From assembly GCA_051871795.1 (NCBI GenBank), contig JBJEDE010000033.1:16354-80353 (forward strand): a DNA stretch of 64,000 nucleotides. The letters run 5' to 3'. Under the pieces are notes generated by a model, which worked only from the letters and a program-made list of their open reading frames with translations, searched no databases and was not told where the DNA came from. Shown one piece after another: positions 4,650 to 40,361 of the stretch (the first letter of the stretch is position 1; each line of letters starts with the position of its first letter). A program made the position numbers and the translations under genes. The stretch is from Muribaculaceae bacterium. Lineage in GTDB: Bacteria > Bacteroidota > Bacteroidia > Bacteroidales > Muribaculaceae.

Positions 4650-4667
4650 ATGACAGTCGGGAGGAGG

Positions 4668-6621: not shown

Positions 6622-6672
6622 AACGAGTATTTATGTTTTGCCGCTTGTGTGATGGCGGCGGTGTTGAGAGAT

Positions 6673-6705
6673 AAAAAAAGCCGCGTCCGAAAGCTCGGTG
6701 CGGCT
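6673..6705 (-). terminator. Rho-independent terminator after rpsO
   Basis: On the minus strand: AGCCGC...GCGGCT stem with an inner ccga/tcgg stem, followed by T7. Confidence 0.7.
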
Positions 6706-6735
6706 CTTTGGGATTTGCGGAAATCCTGCCTGCGA

Positions 6736-19153: not shown

Positions 19154-19157
19154 TTTA

Positions 19158-21322: not shown

Positions 21323-21555
21323 ATCTCTACGTCGTATTTGCGGAGGATTTCTTTGCCTTTCTCGTATGAAGAGAAGTCGATGATGTCGTCGGTCTCCATC
21401 ATGATGTCAAATGCGTCTTCAATGGCCGCAACGAGGGTCATGTGGCCCACGGAGTCCCATAATTCCGTACCTTGGTATGCCAGGCCGGCGAGTTTGTCTT
21501 CCGAGATTTCAAGTGTTTGACAGAATGCGTCGTTGTATTTCTGAAGATTGTCCAT
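21319..21555 (-). CDS. Acyl carrier protein
   Basis: 78 aa, acidic. The 'WDSVGHMTLVAAIE' DS motif is the phosphopantetheine attachment site. Confidence 0.75.
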   Translation of the reverse strand: MDNLQKYNDAFCQTLEISEDKLAGLAYQGTELWDSVGHMTLVAAIEDAFDIMMETDDIIDFSSYEKGKEILRKYDVEI

Positions 21556-21591
21556 AAAGCAGGGGATGATTAAGATGAAATGAGGGGTAGT

Positions 21592-22122
21592 TTATTTAAA
21601 CCGTTTGATAAATCTCAGACGATTTTTGTTGTTAAAATAGGCGTCTGCATCGAGGATGTAGAGCTGATTGTAGACATTTTCTTGTCCCGGAGCCATATAT
21701 GAGCCGAGGAAATCGATAAATCTTTGAGCGCGCCGATTGTCGGTAAGAATATGGGAGATGATTCTGTCGACCGTGCCGCTTTCGAATGCCGTGTCAAAAA
21801 GGGCTAAATGCGCGCGGTAGCTTACATCGGAGTTGAGGTAGCGGTCGTCCCAGATGAATACTCCGCCTTCTCCGACTTTGTCATGGATGTCCTTGATATT
21901 GATAAGGCCGATGTCTTGGCCGTGCATCACAATCAAATAAAAGAGGTTGGAATCATTATTGATTTTTTCAAACCATTTTTCCTGCATTTCGGCGGTGATT
22001 TCATCACGGTACTCCATATACTGTGATATTTTGGGGTCGTTTCTCCATCGGCGCACAAGCTCTATTTTGTCGTGAGTCAGGCGTTTAAGCGTGATGCCGT
22101 ATTTTGTGATTTCGTCTTGCAT
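21592..22122 (-). CDS. GNAT-family N-acyltransferase (RimL/Acetyltransf_3-like)
   Basis: 176 aa. 'ITLKRLTHDKIELVRRWRNDP...', 'DIGLINIKDI' and 'NRRAQRFIDFLG' resemble RimJ/RimL-type GNATs. Confidence 0.65.
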   Translation of the reverse strand: MQDEITKYGITLKRLTHDKIELVRRWRNDPKISQYMEYRDEITAEMQEKWFEKINNDSNLFYLIVMHGQDIGLINIKDIHDKVGEGGVFIWDDRYLNSDVSYRAHLALFDTAFESGTVDRIISHILTDNRRAQRFIDFLGSYMAPGQENVYNQLYILDADAYFNNKNRLRFIKRFK

Positions 22123-22173
22123 GAAGTTTATGGCTTATTGTAGAGTATAGGAAGAAGCATAAAATGCATTGTG

Positions 22174-22181
22174 CAAATTTA
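22174..22181 (-). promoter_or_regulatory. -7 promoter box (TAAATTTG) for the six-gene lux-like operon
   Basis: TAnnTTTG, 52 nt upstream of the ATG at 22122. Confidence 0.5.
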
Positions 22182-22212
22182 CGAAAATTATTTCGATTTG
22201 ACAAAACGTCTT

Positions 22213-23733
22213 TCACTCCCACTCGATTGTGGCCGGCGGTTTGGAGGAGATGTCGTAGGTGACGCGGTTCACGCCCTTGACTTTGTTGATGATTTCGTTG
22301 GAGACGTGGGCCAGGAAGTCGTAGGGGAGGTGGGCCCAGTCGGCTGTCATGGCGTCGGTGGAGGTTACGGCACGCAGGGCCACGGCGCGTTCGTAGGTGC
22401 GTTCGTCGCCCATCACTCCCACGCTCTGCACGGGCAGGAGTATCACGCCGGCTTGCCAAATTTGGTCGTAGAGATTCCAGTCGCGCAAGCCTTGTATGAA
22501 GATGTGGTCGGCTTCTTGCAGGATGTGTACTTTTTCGGGGGTGATGTCGCCGAGGATGCGTACGGCAAGTCCGGGACCGGGGAAGGGGTGACGCGATATG
22601 AGGCGGCGGGGAACACCGAGCTTGGCGCCCACGGCGCGCACTTCGTCTTTGAAGAGGAGGCGCAGGGGTTCGCACAGCCGCAGGTTCATGCGTTCGGGGA
22701 GTCCGCCCACGTTGTGATGGCTTTTGATAGTGGTGCCGGTGATGGAGAGACTTTCGATGCAGTCGGGGTAGATGGTGCCTTGGGCGAGCCATCGGGCGTC
22801 GGTGATTTTTTTTGCTTCTTTTTCGAAGACGTCGATGAAGCCTTTACCGATGATTTTGCGTTTGCGTTCGGGGTCGGTGACTCCGGCGAGTTCGGCGAAG
22901 AATTTTGCTGATGCGTCTACGCCGATGACGTTGAGGCCGAGGTCGCGGTAGTCGTGCATCACGTCGTGAAATTCGTTTTTGCGCAGCATGCCGTGGTCGA
23001 CGAAGATGCAGGTGAGGCGGTCGCCGATGGCGCGGTTCAGGAGTACGGCGGCCACGGTGGAGTCTACGCCGCCGCTGAGTCCGAGGATCACGCGGTCGTC
23101 GCCGATTTGCTCTTTGAGCGCGGCTACGGTGGTGTCGATAAACGAGTCGGCGCTCCATGAGCAGCCCGAGCCGCAGATACCGATTACGAAGTTGCGCAGG
23201 AGAGTCATGCCGCAAGTGGAGTGGAACACTTCGGGATGGAACTGGACGCCCCACGCGCGCCGGCCGTCGAGGCGGTAGGCTGCGCAATTTACTTTTTCGG
23301 TGGAGGCTATCACGTGCGCGTGCTCCGGGAGTGATGTGATGGTGTCGCCGTGGCTCATCCACACTTGTGCTCCGGGCTCGATGCCGGCCATCAGGGGGTC
23401 GGAGCCGCTGACAGATGCGAGGATTGCGCGGCCGTATTCGCGTGAGCCGGCTGCCTGCACGTTGCCTCCTCCCTGGTATGCTATGAGTTGTGCTCCGTAG
23501 CAGATGCCGAGCACGGGGTAGCGGTCGATGAGGGCTCGGGTGTCGGTGCTGAAGGCTTTGGGGTCGTAGACCGAGAACGGGCTGCCGGAGAGGATGACAC
23601 CGATTACGTCGGGATCGTCGTGGGGCATTTTGTTGTAGGGGTGGATTTCGCAATAAGTGCCCGACTCGCGCACTCGTCGTGCGATGAGCTGGGTGGTCTG
23701 CGATCCGAAGTCGAGGATGATAATTTTTTCCAT
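22213..23733 (-). CDS. guaA: GMP synthase (glutamine-hydrolysing)
   Basis: 506 aa. '[20 protein letters not shown]' and '[13 protein letters not shown]' PP-loop. C-terminal '...PPATIEWE'. Confidence 0.97.
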
Positions 23734-23769
23734 ATATGTGTTCCTGTTTTGAGGCTGAGTATGGGAGGA

Positions 23770-26145
23770 CTACGATTGTGGCAGGGCTATGCTGATAACT
23801 TCGGCTGCTGTGGCTGCGTAGTGGAAGGTGAGTCCGCGGGTGTAACGCTCGGGTATGTCGTCGATGTCTTTGCGGTTGTCGGGGCAGATGATGATGTCGG
23901 TGATGCCTGAGCGCTTGGCGGCGAGGATTTTTTCTTTTATTCCGCCCACCGCGAGCACTTTGCCGCGGAGGGTGATTTCGCCTGTCATGGCCGTGCGCGG
24001 GCGCAGTTTGCGGCCGGTGAGCAGCGATACCAGAGCGGTGGCGATGGTGATGCCGGCCGAGGGACCGTCTTTTGGTACGGCGCCTTCTGGAAAGTGGATG
24101 TTGATGTCGTTTTTGTCGAATATTTCGGGGTTTATGCCGAGCTCGGCGCTGTGGGTCTTTACCCATTTGAGGGCGATTGTGGCCGACTCTTTCATCACGT
24201 CGCCGAGGTTGCCGGTGAGGGACAGCTGATTGCCTTTTCCGGGCGAAAGGGATGTCTCGACCAGGAGCGTTTCCCCTCCTGCGCGAGTCCAGGCCAGACC
24301 TGTGACCACACCGGGTATGTCGTTGCCTTCGTACCGGTCTTTGGAGTATGGGGGAGTGCCGAGGAGGTCTTGCAGGTGTTCGGGCTCCACGGTGGTCGGG
24401 AATGTTTTGCCTTCCATTGTGGCGAGGATATGGCGCCGGGCGATTTTGGCGAGGGCTTTCTGAAGCTGTCGCACGCCGCTTTCTGCTGTGTAGAGGTCGA
24501 TGATGTCGGTGATGGCTGCGTCGCTAATTGCGAAAGCGTCGGGTGAGATGCCCAGCTCGGTGGCGTTGCGGCGTATGAGGTGAGTGCGTGCGATTTCTAT
24601 TTTCTCTTCGGTGATGTATCCGCTGAGGTTTACCACTTCGAGGCGGTCGAGCAGGGGAGGCGGCAACGTGTCGAGTGAGTTGGCGGTGGCTATGAAAAGC
24701 ACGTGCGAGAGGTCGAAGTCGACGTCGATGTAGTTGTCGTGGAAATGCGCGTTTTGTTCGGGGTCGAGCACTTCGAGCATAGCCGCGGAGGGGTCGCCTT
24801 TGTAGTCGGCGCCTATTTTGTCGATTTCGTCGAGCACGACTACCGGATTTCGGGTGCCGGCGCGCTTGATGGCGTCGATGATACGGCCGGGCATGGCGCC
24901 GATGTAGGTGCGTCGGTGACCTCTTATTTCCGATTCGTCGTGGAGGCCGCCCAAAGCCACTCGCTGATATTGGCGTCCCAGAGCGCGTGCAATCGATTCG
25001 CCGAGCGATGTTTTACCCACTCCGGGAGGGCCGACGAGGCATAGTATGGGTGCTTTCCCGTCGGGATTGTTGATAAGCACGGCGAGCTGTTCAAGGATGC
25101 GCTCTTTTACTTTGTCGAGCGAGCAGTGTTCGCTGTCGAGCGCCTGACGTGCGAGGGCGAAGTCGGTATTTAACTCTGTTTCGACGTTCCACGGCAGAGA
25201 GAGCAGCGTGTCGAGATATGTGTATATGACCGAGTAGTCGGGAGTCTGCGGGTTGTAGCGGCGTAGCCGTGAGAGTTCTTTGAGGGCAACCTCCCGCACA
25301 TTGTCAGGGAGCGCGGCGTCTTCGATGCGGAGAGCCATTTTCTCCACGTCGCCGTCTTCGCCGTAGAGCTCGTTCTGGAGCACTTCGAGCTGCTGTTGCA
25401 TGAAGGCGCGTTTCTGTCCCTCTTCAAGCTCGGTCTTGGTGCGCATCATCAGCTTTTTGAGCAAATCGGCCTCGAGAAGCTTTTCGGAGAGAATGTCGAT
25501 GAAGTGCATTGCACGTTTTTTTGGCGAGGGCGTAGCCAGAAGCTTGATTTTGTCCTTGATTTTGAACGGGAAATTGGTGAGGATGCTGTTGAGGCTGATC
25601 ACAGGCTCGTTGTTTTCGCGCAGCATCTTCAAGGTCTCGCCCGGGGTGTCGGGCCGGAGCGATGCGAACTCCTCGAGCATGTCGAAAATGCGGTTGATAC
25701 AGACTTTGAACTCGGTTTCGTTGTCGATATTGTCGTAATCGTCCGATAAGTTGTCGGCTGCGACGCAGAAGATGTCCTTGGGGCCTTTGGCGGCTTTGCG
25801 GGTTATGTGTATGGCCTGACGACCGAGCAGCAGAGCTGTTTTCGAGCCGTCGGGAAGCTCGATGATTTTAAGCACGATGGCTGCCACACCATATTTATAT
25901 ATGTCGCGAATCGAAGTGGGGAAATCCTCTTCCGGCTCCTTCTGGCAGAAAACGCCAATGGCTGAGTTGTGTTTCTCGCAATATTCGGCGGCTGCGAGCG
26001 ACTCCTCGCGCACCAGAGCGACAGAAATGTTCACGCCCGGAAACAGCACGAGGTTTCGGCTCGGGAGCACAGGTAGACAGTCGAGTTTGACAGGCCTGTT
26101 TATCTTGTCGATATCGATAGAGATGTGTTCGAGATGGAGATCCAT
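23770..26145 (-). CDS. lon: Lon protease (endopeptidase La)
   Basis: 791 aa. Walker A 'GPPGVGKTSLG' and catalytic Ser 'PKDGPSAGIT'. Confidence 0.95.
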   Translation of the reverse strand: MDLHLEHISIDIDKINRPVKLDCLPVLPSRNLVLFPGVNISVALVREESLAAAEYCEKHNSAIGVFCQKEPEEDFPTSIRDIYKYGVAAIVLKIIELPDGSKTALLLGRQAIHITRKAAKGPKDIFCVAADNLSDDYDNIDNETEFKVCINRIFDMLEEFASLRPDTPGETLKMLRENNEPVISLNSILTNFPFKIKDKIKLLATPSPKKRAMHFIDILSEKLLEADLLKKLMMRTKTELEEGQKRAFMQQQLEVLQNELYGEDGDVEKMALRIEDAALPDNVREVALKELSRLRRYNPQTPDYSVIYTYLDTLLSLPWNVETELNTDFALARQALDSEHCSLDKVKERILEQLAVLINNPDGKAPILCLVGPPGVGKTSLGESIARALGRQYQRVALGGLHDESEIRGHRRTYIGAMPGRIIDAIKRAGTRNPVVVLDEIDKIGADYKGDPSAAMLEVLDPEQNAHFHDNYIDVDFDLSHVLFIATANSLDTLPPPLLDRLEVVNLSGYITEEKIEIARTHLIRRNATELGISPDAFAISDAAITDIIDLYTAESGVRQLQKALAKIARRHILATMEGKTFPTTVEPEHLQDLLGTPPYSKDRYEGNDIPGVVTGLAWTRAGGETLLVETSLSPGKGNQLSLTGNLGDVMKESATIALKWVKTHSAELGINPEIFDKNDINIHFPEGAVPKDGPSAGITIATALVSLLTGRKLRPRTAMTGEITLRGKVLAVGGIKEKILAAKRSGITDIIICPDNRKDIDDIPERYTRGLTFHYAATAAEVISIALPQS

Positions 26146-26170
26146 TAAAAGTTAAGGGGGAAATTTTTTG

Positions 26171-26178
26171 CAAAGGTA
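26171..26178 (-). promoter_or_regulatory. -7 promoter box (TACCTTTG) for lon
   Basis: TAnnTTTG, 26 nt upstream of the lon ATG. Confidence 0.5.
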
Positions 26179-26252
26179 CGAAAAATTGCAAAAAAAATCA
26201 ATAATCCCCCGCGGTCATTAGTTTGCGGCCGGAGTTTGAAGCCTGTTTGATG

Positions 26253-26471
26253 TCAGAACTTTGAGCGCCCCGCCTCAGCCACACTCAGTGAAACTGTACC
26301 GCAAAAGCTAAGAGCCGATTCAACATAGCCGATATAGCGCCCGACTTCCCCAGCCGTAACAAATGCCTCGCCTTTATCATAATGCCGAAGTTGACCGCGG
26401 CTTTTGCAAAGATTCTGCCAAAAGTCGGTGTCAATGTTATCGATATATGAGTTGAACTGCGACTGCATCAC
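26253..26471 (-). pseudogene. Truncated N-terminal fragment of a Crp/Fnr-like (cNMP-binding) regulator
   Basis: 72 aa. 'RHYDKGEAFVTAGEVGRYIGYVES' looks like the start of a cNMP-binding beta-roll. The ORF then ends, with no HTH half. Confidence 0.4.
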
Positions 26472-26504
26472 AAAAATATACTATGCCATTACGAAACAAA
26501 AGCA

Positions 26505-26771
26505 TCAGCCGACCGTGATAATAGGCTGCCCGAAGAAAGTGGAAAGCATGGCGAGAGTTGAGATAGTGAAGTTATGCTCGCCGCTCAGCCATTTTGTTAT
26601 TTCACAAGGTCGTTTACCAAGAGCGTCGGCAAACTGTTTTTTCGTCAAGCCCCGCAGTTGCATCAAATCATAAATTCGGTCTGAAATCTGAAAGGAAAGC
26701 TCGGTTTCCAGTTGCAGACTTTTGGGGATGGGCCCCAGCATTTCTTCCAGTGATTTAGCAGTGCGTTTCAT
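26505..26771 (-). CDS. XRE-family HTH antitoxin (HigA-like)
   Basis: 88 aa. 'LRGLTKKQFADALGKRPCEITKWLSGEHNFTISTLAMLSTFFG'. ATGA overlap with the upstream toxin ORF. Confidence 0.7.
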   Translation of the reverse strand: MKRTAKSLEEMLGPIPKSLQLETELSFQISDRIYDLMQLRGLTKKQFADALGKRPCEITKWLSGEHNFTISTLAMLSTFFGQPIITVG

Positions 26772-27238
26772 ATTTCAAATATATTGTCGGTTTCTATTGT
26801 GGATTCAGTTATGCTAACATTGCCGTTAGCAACTTCCTGCTTAAGAAGCTGTTCAAACTTTTGCAAAGTCATTACATAACCGTTAAGAAGTGAATCGTCC
26901 TCGTATCTTTGAGATTTCTTCACTCCTCCATTGCCTAAAACGAGAATTCTATCGGATAACCGCAGACAATAAAGTCTGAGTTTGGAAGATGTAACCGGTA
27001 AAGCTACGACCGAATCATTCATTTTCCCTTCAGGTCGAAAATAGCGCTCCAATGCACCTGTCTTCGCAATACGTGTAATGAATGCCGCTATTCGGGAGAA
27101 GTCCTCACTGTATTCGGCATCTTCTCTGAATTTGGAGACAAATTTCTCAAATTCAGATTCCATATCGCGGAGAAATTGGAAAGTATATATCGTGCAGTTT
27201 TCTCCGTCCCTGATTAAATAGAGTTCTACTTCGCTCAT
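26768..27238 (-). CDS. RelE/HigB (Gp49-like) family toxin with an N-terminal extension
   Basis: 156 aa from the ATG at 27238 (the ORF-track start is TTG). 'KLRLYCLRLSDRILVLGNGGVKKSQRYEDD' matches the Gp49/HigB core pattern. Confidence 0.5.
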   Translation of the reverse strand: MSEVELYLIRDGENCTIYTFQFLRDMESEFEKFVSKFREDAEYSEDFSRIAAFITRIAKTGALERYFRPEGKMNDSVVALPVTSSKLRLYCLRLSDRILVLGNGGVKKSQRYEDDSLLNGYVMTLQKFEQLLKQEVANGNVSITESTIETDNIFEI

Positions 27239-27268
27239 GGTTCGTATCTTGCGTTTTGTATTATAACG

Positions 27269-27276
27269 CAAAGATA
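27269..27276 (-). promoter_or_regulatory. -7 promoter box (TATCTTTG) for the toxin-antitoxin pair
   Basis: TAnnTTTG, 31 nt upstream of the ATG at 27238. Confidence 0.45.
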
Positions 27277-27372
27277 CGACAAATATTTTACTTAAAAATA
27301 AAATTTCTCACATTTCTTACTTTGGTTTTTACGGCGCGCCGCGATACGCCCGACACGGAGGGGGCGGAAGTG

Positions 27373-30039
27373 TCAGCTGCGGCGGCCGGTGTGGAAGAGG
27401 TGGCTGACGCTGTGGAGGAATGGTGACATGCCGGCGAGGTATCCGTATTGCCGCACCCGTGTGTAGCTCAGGCACAGACGTTTGCCGGCGCGCGATATGG
27501 CCACGTAGAGTTTGCGGGCGTCTTCTTTGATCTGGGCGCGTGCCCGTTGTTTCATTTCGGTCGTCGAATATGGCGAGCGGAGCACGTTGTCGGCCGTGAA
27601 GTAGGGATATGTGCCGTCGTTGACTCCGAGCACGACCACGTTGTCGAATTGCAGACCTTTGGCTTTGTGCACGGTCATGATGAAGAGGCGGTCGGTGATG
27701 AGTTCGTCGGAGTTGACGAGGTCGCCTTCGTTGATTGAGACGGTGAGGTCGCGGATGTGCGCCGACACTTGGTCGAAGAGTGTGCCGGGGCTGTCGCGTT
27801 GCACCCATTCGCTCTGTACGTATCGGAGGAATATGTCGAATTTGGGACCGATTTCGTCGATCAGCCCTTGCTCTGTGAGGGTGCGGCAGGTGAAAGCGAG
27901 GTCGTCGGCTATGGTTCGCCCTGTGACACTGACGGGGAGGTGGAGGTAGGACGTGATGTTGGAGCGCAGGGGCGCTATTTTGCCGAGGCGGGCGGCTATC
28001 AGCTGAGTGGAGCGGTTGGCGATGAATTGTTCCTGAGCTCGGAGCACGCCGGCTGCCTGTGCCATGCAGTGGTCGAGCAGCGAAAGTGTGGCTTCGATGT
28101 CGGCGTCGGCCAGATGGGCATTTTCGCCTTGGAGCCCGAAAGTGTCGACAAGTGATGCGAGAGTATATTTTTTCAGCTCGGGAGCCACGAGCTTGGCGAG
28201 GCTGAGAGTGTCGAAGGTAGTGAACGTTACGTCTTCTTGCAGCTCGCGGGCGCAGTTGTTGCGCAGCATCAGATAGTCGTAGGTGATGTTGTGTCCTATC
28301 AGGGGCAGAGAGCCGGTGTAGTCGAGGAAGAGGCGTAGGCCTTCGGCACGGTCCATGTGCGGCCGGGAGGCATATTCGGCTATCAGCGGATTGGGCAAGT
28401 CGCCGAGCATTTCGGGCAGCTCGCGGTCGGTATGGAGTATGATATTGAAGTCCGAGCCGGCCACTTTTTTTCCGTTGCGTATCTTGAAGGCTGCAATCTG
28501 CACGATGTCGTCTTCGAGTACGTTGAGTCCGGTGGTTTCGGTGTCGAAGACAACGGCTTCGCCGCCGGTGTATAGCTCGTAGACTTGACGTATATAAGGC
28601 TTGTGGCGGAGCAGGTCGGAGGGGGTGAGCATGAGCGAGCGCATGGCATGGACCTTGTCGCGGGTGGCAATCTGAGTGCGCAGGCAACCGAGGCCGTAGA
28701 GCAAGCGGGTCCATGCTCCCATGTCGAAGTCGTTGACTATTACCGAATAGAGCGCCGTGAGTGTCTTGTAGGCTTTGGAGCGGAACATATCGGTGCCGGA
28801 AATTTTGAAATTGCTTTTGCCGGCGGCGGTGAGTGCTTCGCTGATTGCGTCGGCCTGAGCGTTGCACGACACGAGTATGGCCATGCGTTCTTTGCCGGCA
28901 GTGTCGAGTTTGAGATAATAGTCGACCATGCCTTCGATGCGCCGTGCTTCTTTCTCCGGGTCTTCCGACTCGGTGAGGATGAGGTCCAGAGGGCGGTGCG
29001 GCTCGTCGCGGACGGCCCGGGGGAGGATTTCCGGCGAGACGCCGAGCACTTGCTCTGCGTAGGTGTTGCACACATCGAGCAGGTATGAGGGGGCGCGGTA
29101 GTTGGACGAGAGGGTGAGTACGTGGCCGTGGCAACGCTTACGGAGGATGTCGAGGTTGCTGAGCTTGGCGCCCATGAATGAGAATATGGCCTGCTGCTCG
29201 TCGCCCAGATACATTGCCGTTGCGCCGGGCGCGGTGAGCTCGTCGGCGATGGCGAGCTGGAGGCGGTTGAGGTCCTGCACTTCGTCGATCTGTATCCAGC
29301 TGTAACGGATGTGGTCGGTGTGCGTGACCATGTGGTCGTAAGCGAGCACGAGCAGGTCGGCGAAGTCGAGCGCGGTGTGCGATTTTTTGTAGGCGGAATA
29401 TTGCAGGGCGCAGGTCAGGGCCTGGTGTTGGGAGGGAATAAGCTGCGGGTCGAAGTTGTAGCGCCCGGCGATGTCGTAGAAGTACGAAAAATCGCGGGTG
29501 AGAAAATCGCCCGACTTTGTGTCGAGCACGCCCGGGCCGGAGGGAAGCACGCTTTCGGGGTGTCCCATGCGCCGCTGGTCAATGTAGGTCGCGAGGCCGG
29601 AGATGTAGTTTATCGCGTTGCGGTTGATGTTGCCGGTGCGGTAATGCACCAGGGTGCTGTTGAGGTCGGAGATGATTTCGGTCTGGTCGTCGTCGTCGAG
29701 GATGTAGGCGTTTTCGGGTATGACTTCGTTGTTGATGAGGTATATCGAGCAGTAGCGGTGCAGGTTGCCGATGAAAATATCCAGTTCGTTGCGCTTGGCC
29801 TCGAGACGCTCGCACACACGGTTGAGCATACCTCGCGAGGCACGGTTGGTGAAGGTGAGGCACAGCATTTCTTCGGGTTTCACGCCTCGGTCGAGAGCGC
29901 GGGCGATGCGTTCGGCGAGAATTTCGGTTTTGCCGCATCCTGGAGGGGCGAGTACGAGATATTTGCCGTCGTGAGCCTCGATGGCTTGCATTTGCAGTGT
30001 GTCGAATTCTTTATTCATAGGTATATCAGATTTTGTCAT
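27373..30039 (-). CDS. UvrD/Rep-type SF1 helicase with an embedded DnaQ-like DEDDh 3'-5' exonuclease domain
   Basis: Start trimmed to MTKSDIPMNKEF (30039). Helicase motifs are 'APPGCGKT', 'TFTNRAS', 'IQIDEVQDLN', 'SSNYRAP', 'TVHKAKGLQFDNVVV' and 'LYVAISRAGKRL'. The exonuclease 'VVFDTETTGL...IGHNITYDY...AHLADADIEAT' lies between motifs IV and V. Confidence 0.85.
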   Translation of the reverse strand: MTKSDIPMNKEFDTLQMQAIEAHDGKYLVLAPPGCGKTEILAERIARALDRGVKPEEMLCLTFTNRASRGMLNRVCERLEAKRNELDIFIGNLHRYCSIYLINNEVIPENAYILDDDDQTEIISDLNSTLVHYRTGNINRNAINYISGLATYIDQRRMGHPESVLPSGPGVLDTKSGDFLTRDFSYFYDIAGRYNFDPQLIPSQHQALTCALQYSAYKKSHTALDFADLLVLAYDHMVTHTDHIRYSWIQIDEVQDLNRLQLAIADELTAPGATAMYLGDEQQAIFSFMGAKLSNLDILRKRCHGHVLTLSSNYRAPSYLLDVCNTYAEQVLGVSPEILPRAVRDEPHRPLDLILTESEDPEKEARRIEGMVDYYLKLDTAGKERMAILVSCNAQADAISEALTAAGKSNFKISGTDMFRSKAYKTLTALYSVIVNDFDMGAWTRLLYGLGCLRTQIATRDKVHAMRSLMLTPSDLLRHKPYIRQVYELYTGGEAVVFDTETTGLNVLEDDIVQIAAFKIRNGKKVAGSDFNIILHTDRELPEMLGDLPNPLIAEYASRPHMDRAEGLRLFLDYTGSLPLIGHNITYDYLMLRNNCARELQEDVTFTTFDTLSLAKLVAPELKKYTLASLVDTFGLQGENAHLADADIEATLSLLDHCMAQAAGVLRAQEQFIANRSTQLIAARLGKIAPLRSNITSYLHLPVSVTGRTIADDLAFTCRTLTEQGLIDEIGPKFDIFLRYVQSEWVQRDSPGTLFDQVSAHIRDLTVSINEGDLVNSDELITDRLFIMTVHKAKGLQFDNVVVLGVNDGTYPYFTADNVLRSPYSTTEMKQRARAQIKEDARKLYVAISRAGKRLCLSYTRVRQYGYLAGMSPFLHSVSHLFHTGRRS

Positions 30040-30053
30040 GTATGTGGCGGGAA

Positions 30054-31115
30054 TCAGAGGCAGAGCCTCATGCCTGTGAGGCGGCTTCTGTATTCCGGAT
30101 TGAGCAGATTGCGCCGAGAAGTGCGGCAGTCGATAAGAGGTGAGTCGTAAGAGCCTCCGCGCACCACGCGGTGCGTACCCTGTGGAGGTCCCGACGGGTC
30201 GGTATGTCCTGATGCCGATGCGTAGGAGTTGTAGTAGAGGTCGGCGCACCATTCGCCCACGTTGCCGCTGAGGTCGTAGATGCCGAGTTCGTTGGGACGC
30301 TTCATGGCCACGCAGTGTGAGCGGCCGTCGGAGTTGAGCCGGTGCCAGATGCAGTTGTCGGCGTCGGAGTGACCGCAACCGGCGTATTTTGTCATTTTGG
30401 ATAGCTTGCCGCCGCGTGCTGCATATTCCCACTGAGCCTCGGTGGGGAGACGGAACGGCCGTCCGGTGGCCTCGCCGAGCAGCCGGCAGAATTCCTGACA
30501 TTCGTCCCAGGTGACTCGCTCAACCGGGAGGTCGGCTCCTCTGCAGAAACTCGGATTGTCGTGCATCACGGCCTCCCACAGCCTCTGAGTCACGGGTCGG
30601 TCGCACAGGAAGAAGTCGGTGAGCGTGACACTCACCGATGGGCGCTCGTCGTAGTTGGCGTCCATGCCCTGCTCGAATGTCGCGCCTAACGAGAATGTGC
30701 CTCCGGCCACGCGCACCATTCTTATCTCCGAGTCGCCGAACGTTATGCCGAGAATGTCGGCTATGGCGTTCTCAGCTATGTCGGGAGGGGCTTCGATGTC
30801 TCCGTCGATGAGCGACAGGGCGGCGGCCACGCATCGCACGGCATAGTCGCACAGCGCGCGGTCGTAGCCTTGGGCGGTGAGCCGAGCGGTGACGGTAACG
30901 ACAGAAGAGGTGTGGTCGGTGCCCGGCCGAAGGGCTTCCTGATAGAGGCTTTCGGTGAGCCCGCGGTCGATCATTGTGAGCATGATGTTGCGCAGCGCGC
31001 CTGTTTCCCAGCTGTGGTAGTCGGAGAGATAACCGGCGAGCCGGCGCGAGCGCACAATCTCGATTCCGTAGGCCGCTACGGCATCGCAGATGCTTTTATG
31101 CAGTGCGGATTGCAT
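30054..31115 (-). CDS. Cytoplasmic FGE/SUMF1-domain protein with an unknown ~130-aa N-terminal domain
   Basis: 'RVTWDECQEFCRLLGEATGRPFRLPTEAQWEYAARGG', 'GNVGEWCADLY' and 'RVVRGGSY'. No signal peptide. 14-nt gap to the helicase start. Confidence 0.8.
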   Translation of the reverse strand: MQSALHKSICDAVAAYGIEIVRSRRLAGYLSDYHSWETGALRNIMLTMIDRGLTESLYQEALRPGTDHTSSVVTVTARLTAQGYDRALCDYAVRCVAAALSLIDGDIEAPPDIAENAIADILGITFGDSEIRMVRVAGGTFSLGATFEQGMDANYDERPSVSVTLTDFFLCDRPVTQRLWEAVMHDNPSFCRGADLPVERVTWDECQEFCRLLGEATGRPFRLPTEAQWEYAARGGKLSKMTKYAGCGHSDADNCIWHRLNSDGRSHCVAMKRPNELGIYDLSGNVGEWCADLYYNSYASASGHTDPSGPPQGTHRVVRGGSYDSPLIDCRTSRRNLLNPEYRSRLTGMRLCL

Positions 31116-31133
31116 TTTACGGTATTGCGGTTG

Positions 31134-31472
31134 TTATCGGTTGGTCGAGTCGATGGCGGCGAGCAGTCCGGTGAGCTGCGTGCGTATGCTTTGCAGCCGC
31201 TCGATGGCACGGTGCCGGCGGCTTACACCGCTGTGGTTGTGGCGTATCATCTCCTGTGCCACATCGAGCTTTATGCCGCGCTCTTTGACCAGATAGTGCA
31301 CCATGCGTATCTTTTCGATGTCGGCGGGTGAGTAGGTGCGGGTGCCTCCGGCGGTGCGCCGTGGCTTGATGATGGTGAACCGGTTTTCCCAGAAGCGCAG
31401 CGTGGAGGTCGGTATGCCGAGTATTTCGGCCACTTCCGAGATTTTGTAATAGCGTTTGTCGAGGTCGGGCAT
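31134..31472 (-). CDS. MerR-family transcriptional regulator
   Basis: 'YKISEVAEILGIPTSTLRFWENRF...GGTRTYSPADIEKIRMVHYLVKERG'. Confidence 0.85.
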   Translation of the reverse strand: MPDLDKRYYKISEVAEILGIPTSTLRFWENRFTIIKPRRTAGGTRTYSPADIEKIRMVHYLVKERGIKLDVAQEMIRHNHSGVSRRHRAIERLQSIRTQLTGLLAAIDSTNR

Positions 31473-31515
31473 GGGTATCAGGAATCAGGATTTTTTTGTG
31501 GTGGTGGGGAGGGTG

Positions 31516-32484
31516 TCAGTCCATGACGTGGCCGGCGTTTTCGGCCTGGCGTATCATTTCGTCGTATTGTGCGGGAGTGAGGTCGTAGAAGTAGTAGTTT
31601 ACAGGGTTTTGTGGCTTGGAGCGGAAGCGCACTTCGTAGTGGAGGTGCGGACCGGTCGATTTTCCGGTGTTGCCCACTTGTCCGATGAGTTCGCCACGCT
31701 CTACGTTCTGGCCCTCCCGGACGCTTATTTTCGACAGGTGGGCGTAGCGTGTGGTGTATTGGTATCCGTGGTCAATCTCGATGAGGTTGCCGTAGCCGCT
31801 CTGCCATCCGGCGAAGACTACGCGGCCTCGTCCGGTGGCGTAGACGGGAGTGCCGACGGGGCAGGCAAAATCCATGCCTTCGTGAAATTTAGAAGTGCCG
31901 TATACGGGGTCGCGGCGATAGCCGTAGCCGGAAGCCATCTGTCGCAGTTTGCTCTCCGATACGGGCTGTATGGCAGGGATATTGTTTATGCGGTCGCGCT
32001 GCGAGAAAGCGAGGTCCCGCAACTCGTCGAATGAGCGTATCTGTGAGTAGACCTGATAGCTGAGGCGGTCGATTTTTGCAGCCACGGCGTCGACGGCGGC
32101 ATCGGCGTCGGAAATGGAGTCGGTGATGCTGCCCCGACGCTCAAGTCCGGCGTATCGTCTGGCGTCGGTCACGGGGTCGGCTTGCATCATCACGCGGTAG
32201 AAATTGTTGTCTCGGGCCTCGATGTCCTCCATCACGGCAATAGCTTCGTCGGCCTGCCGGGAGAGCTCGTCAAGGCGCGAGTGCAGGTGATTGTTCTCTT
32301 GGCGCAACATCCTCTCTTTGGGCATGTCGAAGAGCAAATATGCCGCCGACAGAAGCGCGGTGGCCACAGCGGCGCCGATGAGCCCGTGACGCAACACTGC
32401 CCGCAGGCGCTTCATGGCTGTGGGGTAGACTCGTTCGTATTGCCCGGTCAGAGGATTGTATTTATAATACGTATTACGCGACAT
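31516..32484 (-). CDS. M23-family metallopeptidase
   Basis: 'HEGMDFACPVGTPVYA' and 'VGNTGKSTGPHLHYEV'. N-terminal TM and coiled coil. Confidence 0.9.
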   Translation of the reverse strand: MSRNTYYKYNPLTGQYERVYPTAMKRLRAVLRHGLIGAAVATALLSAAYLLFDMPKERMLRQENNHLHSRLDELSRQADEAIAVMEDIEARDNNFYRVMMQADPVTDARRYAGLERRGSITDSISDADAAVDAVAAKIDRLSYQVYSQIRSFDELRDLAFSQRDRINNIPAIQPVSESKLRQMASGYGYRRDPVYGTSKFHEGMDFACPVGTPVYATGRGRVVFAGWQSGYGNLIEIDHGYQYTTRYAHLSKISVREGQNVERGELIGQVGNTGKSTGPHLHYEVRFRSKPQNPVNYYFYDLTPAQYDEMIRQAENAGHVMD

Positions 32485-32521
32485 AAGGACCGGTAAAGTT
32501 GCAAAAATCAGAAAAAAAAAC

Positions 32522-32529
32522 TACCTTTG
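32522..32529 (+). promoter_or_regulatory. -7 promoter box (TACCTTTG) for alaS
   Basis: TAnnTTTG, 75 nt upstream of the alaS ATG. Confidence 0.5.
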
Positions 32530-32545
32530 CGGTGATTTTCAGCCA

Positions 32546-32553
32546 CAAAGGTA
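32546..32553 (-). promoter_or_regulatory. -7 promoter box (TACCTTTG) for the M23/MerR string, divergent from alaS
   Basis: TAnnTTTG, 62 nt upstream of the ATG at 32484. Confidence 0.5.
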
Positions 32554-32603
32554 ATAAAAAATTTCCAAGGATTAAACACTAAGGTTAAATTTATCAAGCG
32601 ACA

Positions 32604-35225
32604 ATGTTAACAGCCAAAGAAATACGCGAATCATTCAAAGAATTTTTTCGCTCCAAAAATCATAAAATAGTGCCGTCGGCTCCGATGGTGATTAAGGATG
32701 ACCCCACTCTGATGTTCACCAACGCCGGCATGAATCAGTTTAAAGATATTATTCTTGGCAACGTGGTGCCCAAATCCCGGCGTGTAGCTGACTCGCAGAA
32801 GTGTCTGCGCGTATCCGGCAAGCACAACGACCTCGAAGAGGTGGGCCACGACACCTACCACCACACCATGTTCGAAATGCTCGGCAACTGGAGCTTCGGC
32901 GACTATTTCAAGAAAGAGGCCATCGACTGGGCCTGGGAATACCTCGTCGACGTGCTCAAACTCAGTCCCGAACGTCTCTATGCGACCGTATTCGAAGGTT
33001 CGGCCGACGACGGACTGAGCCGCGACGAGGAGGCCGCCGAAATCTGGCTCCGTCACCTGCCCGCCGATCATATCATCAACGGCAACAAGCACGACAACTT
33101 CTGGGAGATGGGCGAAACCGGCCCCTGCGGTCCCTGCTCCGAAATCCACATCGACCTCCGCCCCGAAGAAGAACGTAAAGCCGTCCCCGGCGCCGAGATG
33201 GTGAACAAAGACCACCCGCAGGTGATTGAAATCTGGAATCTCGTCTTCATGCAATACAACCGTAAAGCCGACGGCTCGCTCGAGCCGCTGCCCGCCAAGG
33301 TCATTGACACCGGCATGGGATTCGAACGCCTGTGCATGGCCCTCCAAGGCAAGACATCCAACTACGACACCGACGTCTTCACTCCCCTCATCGACAAAAT
33401 TTCCGCCCTCTCGGGCAAAGAATACGGAAAGGACCACATGACCGACGTGGCTATGCGCGTAATAGCCGACCACGTGCGCACCATTGCCTTCTCAATCGCT
33501 GACTCGCAACTCCCCGACAACGCCAAGGCAGGATACGTGATACGCCGCATCCTGCGCCGAGCCGTGCGCTACGCCTACACGTTCCTGGGTCAGAAGCAAG
33601 CCTTCATGTACCGCCTCGTCGACACGCTCATCGACTCGATGGGCGACGCCTACCCCGAAATCAAAGTGCAGCGCGAGCTCATCATGCGTGTAATCAAAGA
33701 AGAAGAAGATGCCTTCCTGCGCACGCTCGACAACGGCATCCGTCTGCTCGACAACGCCATCGAAGCAGCGCACAAGGCCGGACGCACCGAAATCTCAGGC
33801 GACGAAGCATTCACGCTCTACGACACCTACGGCTTCCCCCTCGACCTCACCGAGCTCATCCTCAAAGAGAAGGGCATGACCCTCGACCACGAAGCCTTCG
33901 ACCGTAACATGCAGGCTCAGAAACAGCGCGCGCGCAACGCCGCTGCCGTCGAAGCATCCGACTGGGTAGTGCTCCGCGAGGGCGAACAGCAATTCGTGGG
34001 CTACGACGAAAACTCCGTCGAGGCGCACATCCTCCGTTACCGCCACGTAAAACAGAAAAACAAAGAATACTACCAGATAGTGCTCGACCGCACCCCCTTC
34101 TACGCCGAAATGGGCGGTCAGCTCGGCGACCGAGGCACACTGACCTCACCCTCAGGCCATGTGACCGAAATCTTCGACACCAAGCGCGAGAACGGTATGG
34201 GCGTACAGCTTGTCGCCAAGCTCCCCGAAAATCCGGAGGAGACGTTCACCGCCGCCATCGACTGCAAGGCACGTCTGGCCACTTCGTGCAACCACACGGC
34301 CACTCACCTGCTGCACTATGCCCTGCGTCAGGTGCTCGGCACACACGTGGAGCAGAAAGGCTCTTACGTGTCGCCCGAAGTGCTCCGCTTCGACTTCTCG
34401 CACTTCCAGAAGCTCACACCCGAAGAAATACGCCGCGTCGAACATCTTGCCAACGCTCTGGTGCGTCAGGCCATACCCCTCGACGAGTGCCGCAATATGC
34501 CCATCGCTGAAGCACGTAAAATGGGCGCCATGGCTCTCTTCGGCGAGAAATACGGCGACGAAGTGCGCGTGATACGCTACGGCGACTCTGTCGAGCTCTG
34601 CGGCGGCACACACGTGGCCAACACCGGCAACATAGGCATGATACGCATCGTCTCGGAGAGCAGTATCGCAGCCGGCATCCGCCGTATCGAGGCTGTCACG
34701 GCCGAAAACCTCGAAAACGACATGGATGACAAGGCCGACATACTCAAAGCTATCTCCGCTCTCTTCAACAACGCTCCCGACGTGGTGGCCGCTATCCGCA
34801 AATCGATGGAAGAGAACAGCACCCTGCGCAAAAACGCCGAGAAATACTTCAGCGAGCGTGTGGCAATGCTCACCGAGCAAGCGCTTGCCGCCGCCGAAAC
34901 CATCAACGGTATCAAAGTAGTGTCGATGATAGGCAACCGTGTGCCCGAAGTGGTCAAAAACGTAGCTTTCGGTGTCCGCGCCGCATCACCCGAAGACACA
35001 GCCTTTATCGCAGCCACAGTAGATGCGTCGGGCAAACCGCTGCTCACTGTCATGCTCACCGACAACATCGTAAAATCCGGCAAAAACGCCTCGGCTATCG
35101 TGCGCGAAGCAGCCAAGGCCATCAAGGGCGGAGGCGGCGGTCAGCCCGGTTTCGCTCAGGCAGGCGGCAAAGACGCATCCGGCATCGAACGCGCCTACGA
35201 GCTCCTGCGCGCCGCGCTCGTCTGA
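32604..35225 (+). CDS. alaS: Alanine--tRNA ligase
   Basis: 873 aa. '[16 protein letters not shown]', '[11 protein letters not shown]' and editing-domain '[16 protein letters not shown]'. Confidence 0.97.
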
Positions 35226-35263
35226 GAGATTTGCGACTTATAACCGAATTTCCTCTCCCTTAA

Positions 35264-36466
35264 ATGAAAATCAATCCACTCATCAACTTTCTGCACCGGC
35301 AACTGCTGTCAGCGGCGTCTGCCGGTGCGGCTTTTTGCCAAATATCTGTCGTAACCGCACTTGCGATGCTGACGGTGTCGTGCTCGGACAACGAGCCGGA
35401 GCCGCCTGTGGTCGACACAACCCGTACGGTATTGGTATATATGGTGGCTGCCAACGATTTAGGTTCGGTCGGGCTCGACACCGACGATATCGAAGAGATG
35501 CGGCAGGCCGCACGTGAGGGACACTTCGGCAAGTCGCGCCTGTTGGTCTATCATGCCCCGTATTCAGGTGATGCTCAGATCAAAGAAGTGCTCGCCGACG
35601 GCACGGTGACGGCGCTTAAGACTTATCCTTCCGGCACGGCGTCGGTATCGGTCGAACGTATGCGGCAGGTGATTGCCGACACCAAATCGGCCGCTCCCGC
35701 CTTAGATTACGGCATGGTGCTCTGGAGCCATTCATCAGGATGGATAGTCGACGGCATAGAAGACAACCCATCCGCTAAGGGTTTGTGTTACTCCTACGGC
35801 TTGGACGGCGGACGCACCATGAACATTGCCTCTCTGCGACGTGCCATAGACGATGCCGGACTGTCGTTTATCTACTTCGACTGCTGCCTGATGGGCGGTG
35901 TAGAGGTGATGTACGAGTTGCGCCGAGCCGTGGACAAGGCAGTGGTGAGCGCAGCCGAAGTGGCTTTGCCCGGTATGCCTTATCATCTGAGTCTCCGCTA
36001 CCTGATGTCGCCCGAAGCCGACCTTGTGAAGGCAGCCGAGACTACATATCGCTATTACGAAAGCTTCACGTCGCTCTACGACCGCAGCTGCACCATATCG
36101 GTCATTGACCTCACTGCTCTCGAAGCACTGGCGGCAGCAACGCGCGGCATCTACGCCACATCCCCGGTGCCGGTGCCGGAGGGATATGAAAAGAAGTCAT
36201 ACACCGAGCGCGATACATATTATTTTGATTTCGCCGATTATATCGACGCTCTCGCCGCCGGCGACGTAGCTGCGCGCAGGGCATGGCACGATGCTTTCGA
36301 CCGTGTGGTGGTCTACAAAGCGGCCACTCGATATTTCCAGTCGGTGGTTGACCTCTCGCATCACAGCGGGCTCTCTACCTATATTTTTACCTCTGCCGAC
36401 GGCGCTTCGGCCCGGGGCTACGACACCACCGGCTGGTACTCCGACGTGGCTTCGGCACTTTTGTGA
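35264..36466 (+). CDS. Clostripain-family (C11) cysteine peptidase, lipoprotein/secreted
   Basis: 'VLVYMVAANDLG', 'MVLWSHSSGW' (catalytic His) and 'IYFDCCLMGGVEVMYEL' (catalytic Cys). Confidence 0.7.
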   Translation: MKINPLINFLHRQLLSAASAGAAFCQISVVTALAMLTVSCSDNEPEPPVVDTTRTVLVYMVAANDLGSVGLDTDDIEEMRQAAREGHFGKSRLLVYHAPYSGDAQIKEVLADGTVTALKTYPSGTASVSVERMRQVIADTKSAAPALDYGMVLWSHSSGWIVDGIEDNPSAKGLCYSYGLDGGRTMNIASLRRAIDDAGLSFIYFDCCLMGGVEVMYELRRAVDKAVVSAAEVALPGMPYHLSLRYLMSPEADLVKAAETTYRYYESFTSLYDRSCTISVIDLTALEALAAATRGIYATSPVPVPEGYEKKSYTERDTYYFDFADYIDALAAGDVAARRAWHDAFDRVVVYKAATRYFQSVVDLSHHSGLSTYIFTSADGASARGYDTTGWYSDVASALL

Positions 36467-36552
36467 ACCCTATGCCCGAGACTCGGGTTATATAATTGTC
36501 GGCATCCTTTGCCGAATGTCTGTTACAATAAGCGCTTCCTTCAATTATCGGT

Positions 36553-37653
36553 ATGTTTTTCGCTCAAAATCCGCTCAACCCCATAGCTGTCCCCGATTCT
36601 GTGCCCGACAAGGCACAGGAGATTGAAATGCTCAAATCTCTGCCGTTCGACGAGCTGATGCAACACCTGGTGCAGGGTGTCGTATCCCTCGCCATCAACA
36701 TAGTTGTGGCTGTTATAGTCTTCTATGTCGGCAAATTCGTGATTACACGCATCCAGTCGCTGGTGGTCTCGATTATGATAAAACGACGCGCCGAGCGTTC
36801 GGTGGTGACATTCGTGTCGTCGCTGGTGCGCATCACGCTCTATTTCCTGCTCATAATCGTAGTCATCGGCATCCTCGGCATCGAAACGTCATCGTTTATC
36901 GCTCTCTTCGCTTCGGCCGGCGTCGCAATCGGCATGGCTCTGAGCGGCACGCTGCAAAATTTTGCTGGTGGCGTACTTATTCTCTTTATAAAGCCTTATA
37001 AAGTAGGTGATTACATTGAGAGCGGAGGGTTCGCCGGCACTGTGGCCGAGATACAGATTTTCCACACTATCATTGTCACCCCCGACAACAAGTCGATACT
37101 TATCCCCAACGGCGTGCTTTCCAACGGCTCAATCAACAACTGGAGCCGCGAGGATTACCGGCGCGTTGACTGGACCGTGTCGATATCTTACGGCGACGAT
37201 GTAGAGACAGCACGCAACACGATACTCGAGTTGCTCCGTGCCGACGAGCGTGTGGTGCAGCGATATATCGAAGACGATATCGAAGAGGAAATCCGCGAGA
37301 CGGAAGAAGCTGCGGCCGCCGTGCCTGAACATGAAAATCACGGCTGGTTGTGGAGGCTCTTCCACTCGCAGCGTTCGCAGGCATCGCAGCTGATGAAGAA
37401 GTGGGAGAAAAATGCCGCGCAGAAGCAGAGTATGCGCATGCCGAAAATTGACCGCAGCCCTATAGTCAAGGTAGGCGCGCTGGCCGACAGCTCGGTCAAC
37501 CTCACTGTGCGCGCCTGGACACGCAAAGAGAACTACTGGGACCTCTATTGGGATGTAAACGAGCGCATCTATACACTCCTTCCGGCCGCAGGCATCAACT
37601 TCCCGTTCCCGCAGATGGACGTGCACCTGAGCCGCCCGACAGCAGGCGCATAG
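36553..37653 (+). CDS. MscS-family mechanosensitive channel
   Basis: 'KVGDYIESGGFAGTVAEIQIFHTIIVTPDNKSILIPNGVLSNGSINNWS', with three preceding TM helices. Confidence 0.85.
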   Translation: MFFAQNPLNPIAVPDSVPDKAQEIEMLKSLPFDELMQHLVQGVVSLAINIVVAVIVFYVGKFVITRIQSLVVSIMIKRRAERSVVTFVSSLVRITLYFLLIIVVIGILGIETSSFIALFASAGVAIGMALSGTLQNFAGGVLILFIKPYKVGDYIESGGFAGTVAEIQIFHTIIVTPDNKSILIPNGVLSNGSINNWSREDYRRVDWTVSISYGDDVETARNTILELLRADERVVQRYIEDDIEEEIRETEEAAAAVPEHENHGWLWRLFHSQRSQASQLMKKWEKNAAQKQSMRMPKIDRSPIVKVGALADSSVNLTVRAWTRKENYWDLYWDVNERIYTLLPAAGINFPFPQMDVHLSRPTAGA

Positions 37654-37671
37654 CTAAATAGCTAAAACAAC

Positions 37672-37704
37672 AAAAGTGCCGGACGGCCTCGCCCGGCACT
37701 TTTT
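37672..37704. terminator. Bidirectional terminator between mscS-like (+) and der (-)
   Basis: aaa-AGTGCCGG-acggcctcgc-CCGGCACT-tttt. Confidence 0.7.
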
Positions 37705-37717
37705 GTGCGGAGAGTAA

Positions 37718-39034: not shown

Positions 39035-39178
39035 ATTATGATAATTGAGAGTTGTTATTGATTTTATTGGCACCGGAGCTTGCACCGGTGTGACAATGCA
39101 AATTTAACATTAAATTGTTAAATATGCAAATTCTTTATTGCCTCAGGCCGTGAAATGTCGGCTTGGCTTCGGCTTCGG

Positions 39179-40060: not shown

Positions 40061-40361
40061 ATTGTCTGTATAAATAAATAAAACATACCGGTGGCGGATA
40101 GAGCACGTTAGGCCGGTTGTCGCGCCTCATTGCCACGAGATTCATATATAGAACAAACGCACGGGGAGCGAGGATGGAAAATTAAGATATTTTAACGCGG
40201 CGGCTTCTCGCGGCTTCTTTATTGTGATGTTGAGGTATGTTGTGGGTGAAACGTGGATTGAAAGTTTACCGTGGCCCGGGGCACCGGACAAGGAAAACAA
40301 GCGAGGGTGCACCAAAATTCGCATTTTGACACACCCTCGTATGAGTTCAGGATCCGGGCGG

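Follow-up and report, generated by a model that had tools for sequence, protein, structure and literature searches.

An FGE-fold protein and a UvrD-type helicase-exonuclease as a conserved two-gene module with a possible role in DNA surveillance

TerY-P triads have been described as phosphorylation switches that accompany DNA-processing modules, and validated defence systems include TerY-P-like modules (PMC11090510, citing Anantharaman 2012 and Gao 2020; PMC4978471). Domains resembling the formylglycine-generating enzyme (FGE), termed FGS domains, have been proposed to bind invader molecules in conflict systems centred on NTPases (Kaur et al. 2020, PMC7159879), and FGE-like domains also occur as sensors of defence STAND proteins (PMC13581612). 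This study was concerned with a locus in a 64,000-nt stretch of DNA from a Muribaculaceae bacterium (GenBank assembly GCA_051871795.1, contig JBJEDE010000033.1, positions 16,354 to 80,353), referred to here as the window, in which a 353-residue FGE-domain protein (the partner) is encoded directly upstream of a UvrD-like helicase that carries an exonuclease domain. The partner and the helicase-exonuclease are a genuine conserved two-gene module. Our literature searches returned no description of a pair formed by an FGE protein and a UvrD-type exonuclease, with Anantharaman et al. 2012 lying beyond the search and a prior description there being possible. Also, the literature on TerY-P systems, of which the 2012 Ter paper was outside our coverage, was not found to mention a UvrD-DEDDh protein with a lectin-fold partner or the seven-helix N-terminal domain (N-domain) that the partner carries.

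Linkage of the partner and the helicase-exonuclease

The original prediction described three tightly spaced genes on one strand, encoding a MerR regulator, an FGE-domain protein and a helicase-exonuclease, and suggested that only the last two might form the functional unit. The open reading frames (ORFs) and the Pfam matches agree with this arrangement. From the ORF list, Pfam and NCBIfam, five genes were recognized: those for an M23 peptidase, MerR, the partner and the helicase-exonuclease, in that order on the minus strand, and alaS on the opposite strand. The gap between MerR and the partner is 18 nt, and the first ATG of the helicase lies 11 nt past the stop codon of the partner, or 14 nt when the stop codon is included.

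The helicase-exonuclease was found directly downstream of a full-length relative of the partner in all 19 loci that could be examined (the window, L081, L085, L088, L096-L109 and L182; L105 ends at a contig edge and shows the FGE C-terminal domain only, and L107 and L109 are near-identical copies of one arrangement). These loci cover at least five kinds of genomic setting, and thus the adjacency is far beyond chance. For example, in L085, from a related genome, the pair occupies the same alaS-M23-MerR site, in L081-L084 it lies behind an island of BREX and TerY-P genes, and L088 provides a third context. Scanning metagenomes with the helicase alignment (A2) gave 80 loci, which were then screened by hidden Markov models built from A2 and from the partner alignment (A1). 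An FGE-family gene was immediately upstream in 14 of the 14 loci whose helicase is 47-50% identical to that of the window, and in none of the 66 loci whose helicase, from a sister clade, is 36-43% identical. As a control, a scan with the full FGE alignment caught generic FGE motifs and gave paralogue loci only; none of these 80 loci holds the helicase. In addition, the pairwise identities of partner and helicase across 16 loci are strongly correlated (r = 0.965), which indicates that the two genes are inherited together, and their stop and start codons overlap in L100, L103, L104 and L105. Linkage, co-divergence and overlapping codons together uphold the suggestion that the last two genes form the functional unit.

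Co-occurrence is complete when viewed from the FGE side but not from the helicase side, where three lineages of the same clade and the 66 sister-clade loci are unpaired. In a neighbour-joining tree every FGE-linked helicase falls within one clade, this clade also holds the unpaired members, and the partner gene has been lost or gained repeatedly.

The pair had also been proposed as a candidate for defence, and in relatives it does sit within defence-type islands marked by BREX, the TerY-P triad or an SF1 helicase with WYL. The common gene order is BrxL, TerY-C, Ser/Thr kinase, vWA, PP2C, a 366-aa protein, zero to two N-domain proteins, the FGE partner and the helicase-exonuclease. Downstream of the latter are found either an SF1 (AAA_11/12) helicase and a WYL gene, or a small N-domain protein and FtsK, and PIF1, Endonuclease_NS and Schlafen-like genes also occur nearby. 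The TerY-P triad is present in 12 related loci (L081, L088, L096, L098-L101, L103, L104, L106, L182 and, in part, L176). It is found in nine of the 14 metagenome loci L096-L109, with BrxL upstream in eight of these nine and in L081. The 366-aa protein (L081 6897-7997, with orthologues in 12 other loci at 47-91% identity) matches no Pfam family; it always lies between PP2C and the N-domain or FGE genes of TerY-P-linked operons and is absent from the window.

A full operon is carried by a cultured isolate, Prevotella sp. E2-28, on its 205-kb plasmid pE2-28 (L182; NZ_CP091789.1, ~21,007-40,640). It reads helix-turn-helix (HTH) protein, TerY-C, kinase, vWA, PP2C, N-domain protein, hypothetical protein, 366-aa protein, FGE partner and helicase-exonuclease, followed by FtsK (with an N-domain), N-domain protein, hypothetical protein, OmpA-family protein, hypothetical protein and a further FtsK with an N-domain. 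The isolate would be tractable for experiments. A separate observation was made in L110 (metagenome contig Ga0065708_1014829), the sister lineage of the FGE-linked helicase clade at 43% identity: no FGE gene is present and the downstream SF1 (AAA_11/12) helicase and WYL genes are kept, which suggests that the association of the helicase with SF1 and WYL is older than the FGE partnership.

Features of the two proteins

The Pfam family FGE-sulfatase (PF03781) matches residues 132-351 of the partner (E 5e-42, profile positions 4-253 of 255), and residues 1 to ~115 match no Pfam family. Alignment A1 comprised 27 full-length relatives at 36-63% identity, apart from a 97%-identical copy from the same species. 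A profile search of the PDB with the partner family placed TvpA (2y3c, E 7e-55) ahead of true FGEs (1e-31), and a Foldseek search with the AlphaFold2 (AF2) model of the whole protein (pLDDT 77.5) likewise returned TvpA as the top match (2y3c, E 2e-13), with FGE structures at E ~1e-8. TvpA is the variable protein of a diversity-generating retroelement (DGR) in Treponema denticola. The copper-binding catalytic cysteine pair of FGE is C336/C341 in the human enzyme and C272/C277 in that of S. coelicolor. When the partner family was aligned to S. coelicolor FGE (2q17/6muj), the first of these cysteines was found to be replaced by Ser in the window protein and by Asp or Asn in its relatives, and the second, C330, was invariant, as was the GN(V/I)xEW calcium-site motif. 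These comparisons show a C-terminal domain with a predicted TvpA-like C-type-lectin/FGE fold that would be incapable of the copper binding of a true FGE. Since one of the two catalytic cysteines is missing and TvpA is the nearest relative, the domain is best read, from its sequence, as a ligand-binding module rather than an enzyme. The NCBIfam scores of the partner for EgtB, PvdO and GldK are also far under their cut-offs.

The partner has no signal peptide and no hydrophobic segment, the highest 15-residue Kyte-Doolittle mean over the whole protein being 1.5; the protein is cytoplasmic. This agrees with the original prediction, and residues 4-99 form a helical bundle. The prediction had further described a complete FGE/SUMF1 fold, which holds for the fold itself, covering nearly the whole profile, but not for the enzyme, as C330 is all that is retained of the catalytic cysteine pair. 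For the same reason, and with TvpA as the nearest structure, the sensor half of the proposed "sensor or modifier" is favoured and the modifier half is unlikely.

When modelled alone, the N-domain was predicted by AF2 to be a seven-helix bundle (pLDDT 93.5, pTM 0.88). It matches no Pfam family and no structure in the PDB (best Foldseek E 2.6). A profile search among 1.84 billion representatives identified 1,069 clusters at E<=1e-3, in which the domain is nearly always N-terminal. The C-termini of 124 of the N-domain clusters include FGE-sulfatase, Sel1, TPR, LRR, PEGA, Lcl_C, FtsK and HerA ATPases, and in some fusions FtsK is accompanied by its gamma domain. Four N-domain proteins are encoded in L096 and five in the Prevotella plasmid operon, two of the latter being FtsK-like translocases. 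Such fusions typically neighbour TerY-P triads and BREX genes. The N-domain, a putative adaptor, appears to be undescribed. A 7.6-kb contig (L176, Logan SRR21150944) encodes PP2C and, after it, an array (413-6870) whose members include DUF2971, a 637-aa protein that joins the N-domain to LRR, and an FGE-sulfatase protein of 307 aa. The contig holds no helicase gene; arrays of N-domains and binding modules thus follow TerY-P-type genes in the absence of the helicase as well.

In the helicase, Walker A (GCGKT, with K38), DEVQD (253-257), YLGDEQQAIFSF, NYR and other motifs are invariant in A2, and the SF1A motifs are intact. The inserted exonuclease domain is matched by Pfam RNase_T (E 4e-17) and by the DEDDh profile of PADLOC (E 1e-20), and its residues D500, E502, D589, H643 and D648 are invariant in the 24 sequences of A2. 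Judged by these residues, the protein is shown to be an intact UvrD-type motor with an intact, predicted 3'-5' exonuclease of the DEDDh type. It does not reach the NCBIfam equivalog cut-offs for PcrA (160 bits versus 911), UvrD (139 versus 1144) or Rep (144 versus 951), and is also far under the cut-off for AddA. An exact-sequence look-up of the window helicase gave no match. In L081-L084, L096-L099, L101, L102 and L106 the helicase is longer (1146-1162 aa), with a C-terminal extension of ~280 aa that contains a RecB-like PD-(D/E)XK motif (GTxDLI...YDWK). A single chain of the long variants thus holds the UvrD motor together with two nuclease domains, DEDDh and PD-(D/E)XK, the latter of which, at the C-terminus, is missing from the window helicase (881/889 aa). 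A scan of viral contigs with the helicase gave one close match (49% identity), located on the contig of L104, together with two distant UvrD-type relatives (26%) and one partial match (35%, ~310 residues).

The helicase probably starts at the ATG at 30018, which would give a protein of 881 aa and a gap of 35 nt to the partner. This is argued for by the closest database relatives, which begin at MNKEF (P0121, 881 aa), by A2, which begins at the same place, and by compensating indels in a bovine-metagenome strain (run X19). In that strain the first eight codons of the long ORF lose one nucleotide at 30035 and gain one after 30042, the two changes offsetting each other, which indicates that those codons are untranslated.

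The locus in the window and its surroundings

The features of the locus are summarized in Table 1. The original prediction placed the pair under MerR-type control, with the M23-MerR pairing beside alaS as possibly ancestral. The MerR gene is 88% identical in L085 and L090, where M23 and alaS are also conserved. In L085 MerR and the pair are separated by a PIN gene, and in L090 the partner is missing and the helicase directly follows MerR. MerR is absent from the remaining 17 paired loci. Because alaS-M23-MerR recurs before a lone helicase in L090 and before a PIN gene and the pair in L085, MerR and M23 are ancestral neighbours and not parts of the module; the ancestral pairing is thus supported by synteny, and MerR-type control as a property of the module is not. 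In L085-L087 a PIN_3 gene (L086 1925-2344) has been inserted, along with ~440 nt of unannotated sequence, at the junction that measures 18 nt in the window. Small insertions of the toxin type seem to be tolerated behind MerR.

Table 1. Coordinates of the features of the locus, numbered from the first position of the window
Feature	Coordinates	Strand	Remarks
M23 peptidase	31516-32484	minus	Peptidase_M23 E 6e-40; first gene of the probable transcription unit
MerR-family regulator	31134-31472	minus	112 aa, HspR-like, MerR_1 E 2.6e-21; without effector-binding domain (Pfam, NCBIfam)
FGE-fold partner protein	30054-31115	minus	353 aa; ORF, Pfam, alignment A1, AF2 model
Partner N-terminal domain	30780-31115	minus	residues ~1-112; seven-helix bundle (predicted)
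Partner FGE-sulfatase (C-type lectin-like) domain	30063-30722	minus	residues 132-351
Helicase-exonuclease, SF1A UvrD-like	27373-30042	minus	889 aa from first ATG; Pfam UvrD-helicase, UvrD_C, RNase_T
Inserted DEDDh (RNase_T/DnaQ-like) exonuclease domain	28078-28554	minus	helicase residues 497-655
alaS	32604-35225	opposite to M23	diverges from M23
Bacteroides-type -7 promoter motif TACCTTTG	32546-32553	minus	upstream of M23; motif scan
Two-gene toxin-antitoxin-like pair, PADLOC PDC-M64 B + C	26505-27271	minus	separate unit, own promoter motif at 27276

A sigma-70 promoter scan is not applicable to Bacteroidota, and a scan for the Bacteroides -7 motif (TAnnTTTG) was used instead. On the minus strand this motif was found at two places, before M23 (32553) and before the next unit (27276), and no terminator-like site was found on that strand between the M23, MerR, partner and helicase genes. 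Since the sole -7 motif ahead of that at 27276 precedes M23 and no terminator-like site intervenes, the four genes probably form one transcript, judging from the motif. Co-transcription with M23 and MerR in this genome is probably a matter of position only. Contigs from metatranscriptome run X3, which are unstranded and may include DNA, have even depth across the locus, and one of them reaches from M64B across the helicase into the FGE gene.

Directly downstream of the helicase, the PDC-M64-like pair consists of a 167-aa and an 88-aa (HTH) gene with a 4-nt overlap (PADLOC PDC-M64B E 3.5e-46, PDC-M64C E 5.7e-23). PDC-M64 is a candidate defence system in PADLOC, and both this neighbour and the PIN gene of L085 count towards a defence-type context. 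With a GC content of ~0.49 in surroundings of ~0.57, the pair resembles an insertion of the toxin-antitoxin type that separates the helicase from lon. L063 (Candidatus Limimorpha caballi) carries a homologous pair. An apparent deletion joint, 27125->32868, in the DNA runs was rejected as an artefact: the contig behind it is foreign, matches by 20 nt on either side of the joint, and appears in every run with the same loose ends.

Further away, between guaA and a CBM26 protein, a low-GC (0.46-0.49) cluster is found at 16885-22122 on the minus strand, encoding a LuxC-like acyl-CoA reductase, a LuxE-like acyl-protein synthetase, an AMP-binding enzyme, a short-chain dehydrogenase and a GNAT acetyltransferase. 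The relative L085 is without this stretch, and there the TPM and HD genes come after the helicase, a difference which implies an insertion or rearrangement of at least 13 kb in the window.

Possible function and comparison with known systems

We place at about even the prospect that the pair is a minimal DNA-degrading surveillance module with a lectin-fold binder, in which the defence role is read from the context in relatives. We infer that the two proteins may interact, that the partner would have a ligand and that the pair may serve in defence. The lectin-fold domain would bind a specific conserved ligand, an invader molecule or one associated with DNA; conservation of the ligand is suggested by the partner family itself, which has kept constant the very surface that makes DGR proteins hypervariable. 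The N-domain may dock the partner onto the DNA-processing machinery, and ligand binding would then license or target the helicase-exonuclease, so that DNA is unwound and degraded from 3' ends in a manner resembling defence by RecBCD/AddAB or of the Gabija type. In the full systems, additional N-domain proteins and the TerY-P switch would add sensors and control, and the window would keep a minimal form of partner and helicase, without that switch or further N-domain proteins; tblastn searches found no TerY-P genes, no second N-domain protein and no second UvrD-type gene in the 64 kb. A wider proposal is offered only tentatively, as we consider it rather doubtful: that the N-domain is an adaptor which recruits interchangeable binders (FGE/lectin, LRR, TPR, Sel1) and FtsK translocases to a UvrD-DEDDh(-PD-(D/E)XK) enzyme under TerY-P gating, in a new multi-sensor family directed against phages or plasmids, of which the window would hold the two-gene core.

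Several observations weigh against a surveillance role, and some of them fit a housekeeping reading. In that reading the helicase would be a core repair or replication-restart enzyme of Bacteroidales, and the lectin-fold protein an optional accessory or targeting subunit with no part in conflict, such as a tether between the helicase and a cellular structure or a lesion. Unpaired helicases of the same clade stand in ordinary chromosomal contexts: directly after alaS-M23-MerR in L090 (helicase 60% identical), beside panB in L092 and between yjbR and dinB in L095. The sister clade is never paired (0/66), and a related unpaired clade is widespread in human-gut Bacteroides, Phocaeicola and Prevotella. 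These unpaired members suggest that the helicase itself may be a repair enzyme. The window locus is syntenic with its relatives (alaS-M23-MerR), its arrangement is identical in all pig, sheep and bovine gut metagenome runs examined, and no mobile-element hallmarks were found at it. The helicase has diverged from its relatives (60-66%) no further than some ordinary flanking genes have (C11 peptidase, 59-61%; TPM, 62%), and an argument from fast evolution was dropped on this account. PADLOC gave no match for the partner of the window at E<=0.01 or for its L081 orthologue at E<=1e-5, PADLOC-DB v2 holding no model for the partner, the 366-aa protein or the N-domain, and matched the helicase only through generic UvrD and DEDDh profiles. 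The probable co-transcription with a cell-wall peptidase and an HspR-like regulator, and the N-domain-FtsK fusions with a gamma domain, which point to chromosome handling, also favour housekeeping. However, most paired members lie within BREX/TerY-P islands and one is on a 205-kb plasmid, the partner gene has been repeatedly lost or gained, and the N-domain arrays with LRR, TPR, Sel1 and lectin modules resemble a variable sensor repertoire and not a repair complex. We regard a housekeeping role for the pair as rather unlikely, though as the main rival it is to be taken seriously.

Two other explanations concern the FGE-fold protein itself. It might be an active oxidase or modifier, of the Cys-to-formylglycine type of FGE or like EgtB/PvdO, acting on the helicase, another target or a small molecule; the match over nearly the whole FGE-sulfatase profile and the invariant C330 and GN(V/I)xEW motif would fit such a role. 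However, with Ser, Asp or Asn in place of the first cysteine there is no bis-cysteine Cu(I) site, the DinB-like iron-binding domain of EgtB is absent, the NCBIfam scores are low and the nearest relative in sequence and fold, TvpA, is non-enzymatic. Nor was a sulfatase gene found near the pair among the annotated genes of the window (~11.5-39 kb) or of the related loci, and we hold an enzymatic role to be quite improbable. The resemblance to TvpA also raises the idea that the gene is a DGR target encoding a hypervariable receptor, whose place beside the helicase would be fortuitous. Gut Bacteroidales often carry DGRs. However, no template/variable repeat of the 3' end of the gene was found within 20 kb (window 20-40 kb), and no reverse transcriptase is among the genes annotated around the pair (~11.5-39 kb). 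The C-terminal region, which varies so strongly in DGR targets, belongs to the most conserved portions of this family, and the adjacency to the helicase is conserved rather than accidental. This last explanation is scarcely credible and, given the missing repeat and the conserved C-terminus, was rejected.

Current catalogues of defence systems were built mostly from Proteobacteria and Firmicutes and are thin on gut and rumen Bacteroidales. If the surveillance reading is true, a lectin-fold binder joined to a helicase-exonuclease would be a new coupling of recognition to DNA degradation, and an uncharacterised adaptor domain found over ~1,000 protein clusters would likewise be new. The finding offers a testable handle on the targets of TerY-P triads, with a full operon available on the plasmid of Prevotella sp. 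E2-28. Should the pair prove to be a repair module, the partner would be an accessory factor, so far unstudied, of a helicase found widely in Bacteroidales.

Among known systems, FGE/SUMF1 shares with the partner its overall fold, Pfam family, second catalytic-site cysteine and GNVxEW motif. However, the partner is without the first catalytic cysteine, is cytoplasmic, has no sulfatase beside it and carries an extra N-terminal helical domain. It is closer to TvpA and the FGS domains, which have the FGE-type C-type lectin fold without the FGE catalytic cysteine pair, and FGS domains are always C-terminal to other modules (PMC7159879), as in the partner. In contrast to TvpA, no DGR is present here and the ligand face at the C-terminus is not hypervariable but conserved. 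The described FGS systems differ in their core, which is vWA-MoxR, STAND or a GTPase rather than a helicase-exonuclease, and UvrD is unmentioned in PMC7159879.

The helicase resembles AddA/RecB, GajB and DEDDh-DinG in combining an SF1A UvrD-type motor and a nuclease in one polypeptide, and the longer relatives add a RecB-type PD-(D/E)XK domain. The GajB profiles of PADLOC also match it, generically (E 1e-47). It differs from these machines in that the DEDDh domain is inserted inside the window helicase, in the 2A/2B region, and in that no GajA, AddB or RecC/D partner accompanies it; a GajA-like (ATPase-TOPRIM) gene, as in Gabija, is not adjacent in the window or in the related loci. The N-domain can be compared to the effector-associated domains (EADs) of Kaur et al. 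2020, as a small all-helical N-terminal module repeated on otherwise unrelated proteins of one locus. This likeness is one of layout, with no kinship in sequence or structure found and none looked for, and the repetition suggests assembly through a shared adaptor, possibly by homotypic interaction.

Lastly, TerY-C, Ser/Thr kinase, vWA and PP2C genes directly precede the pair in relatives, in the company of helicases, nucleases and FtsK-like ATPases, as in TerY-P systems. The window differs in having no triad (tblastn of the triad proteins against the whole window). The pair is best filed as a variant among conflict systems of the TerY-P type with FGS sensors, which are built around DNA-processing enzymes.

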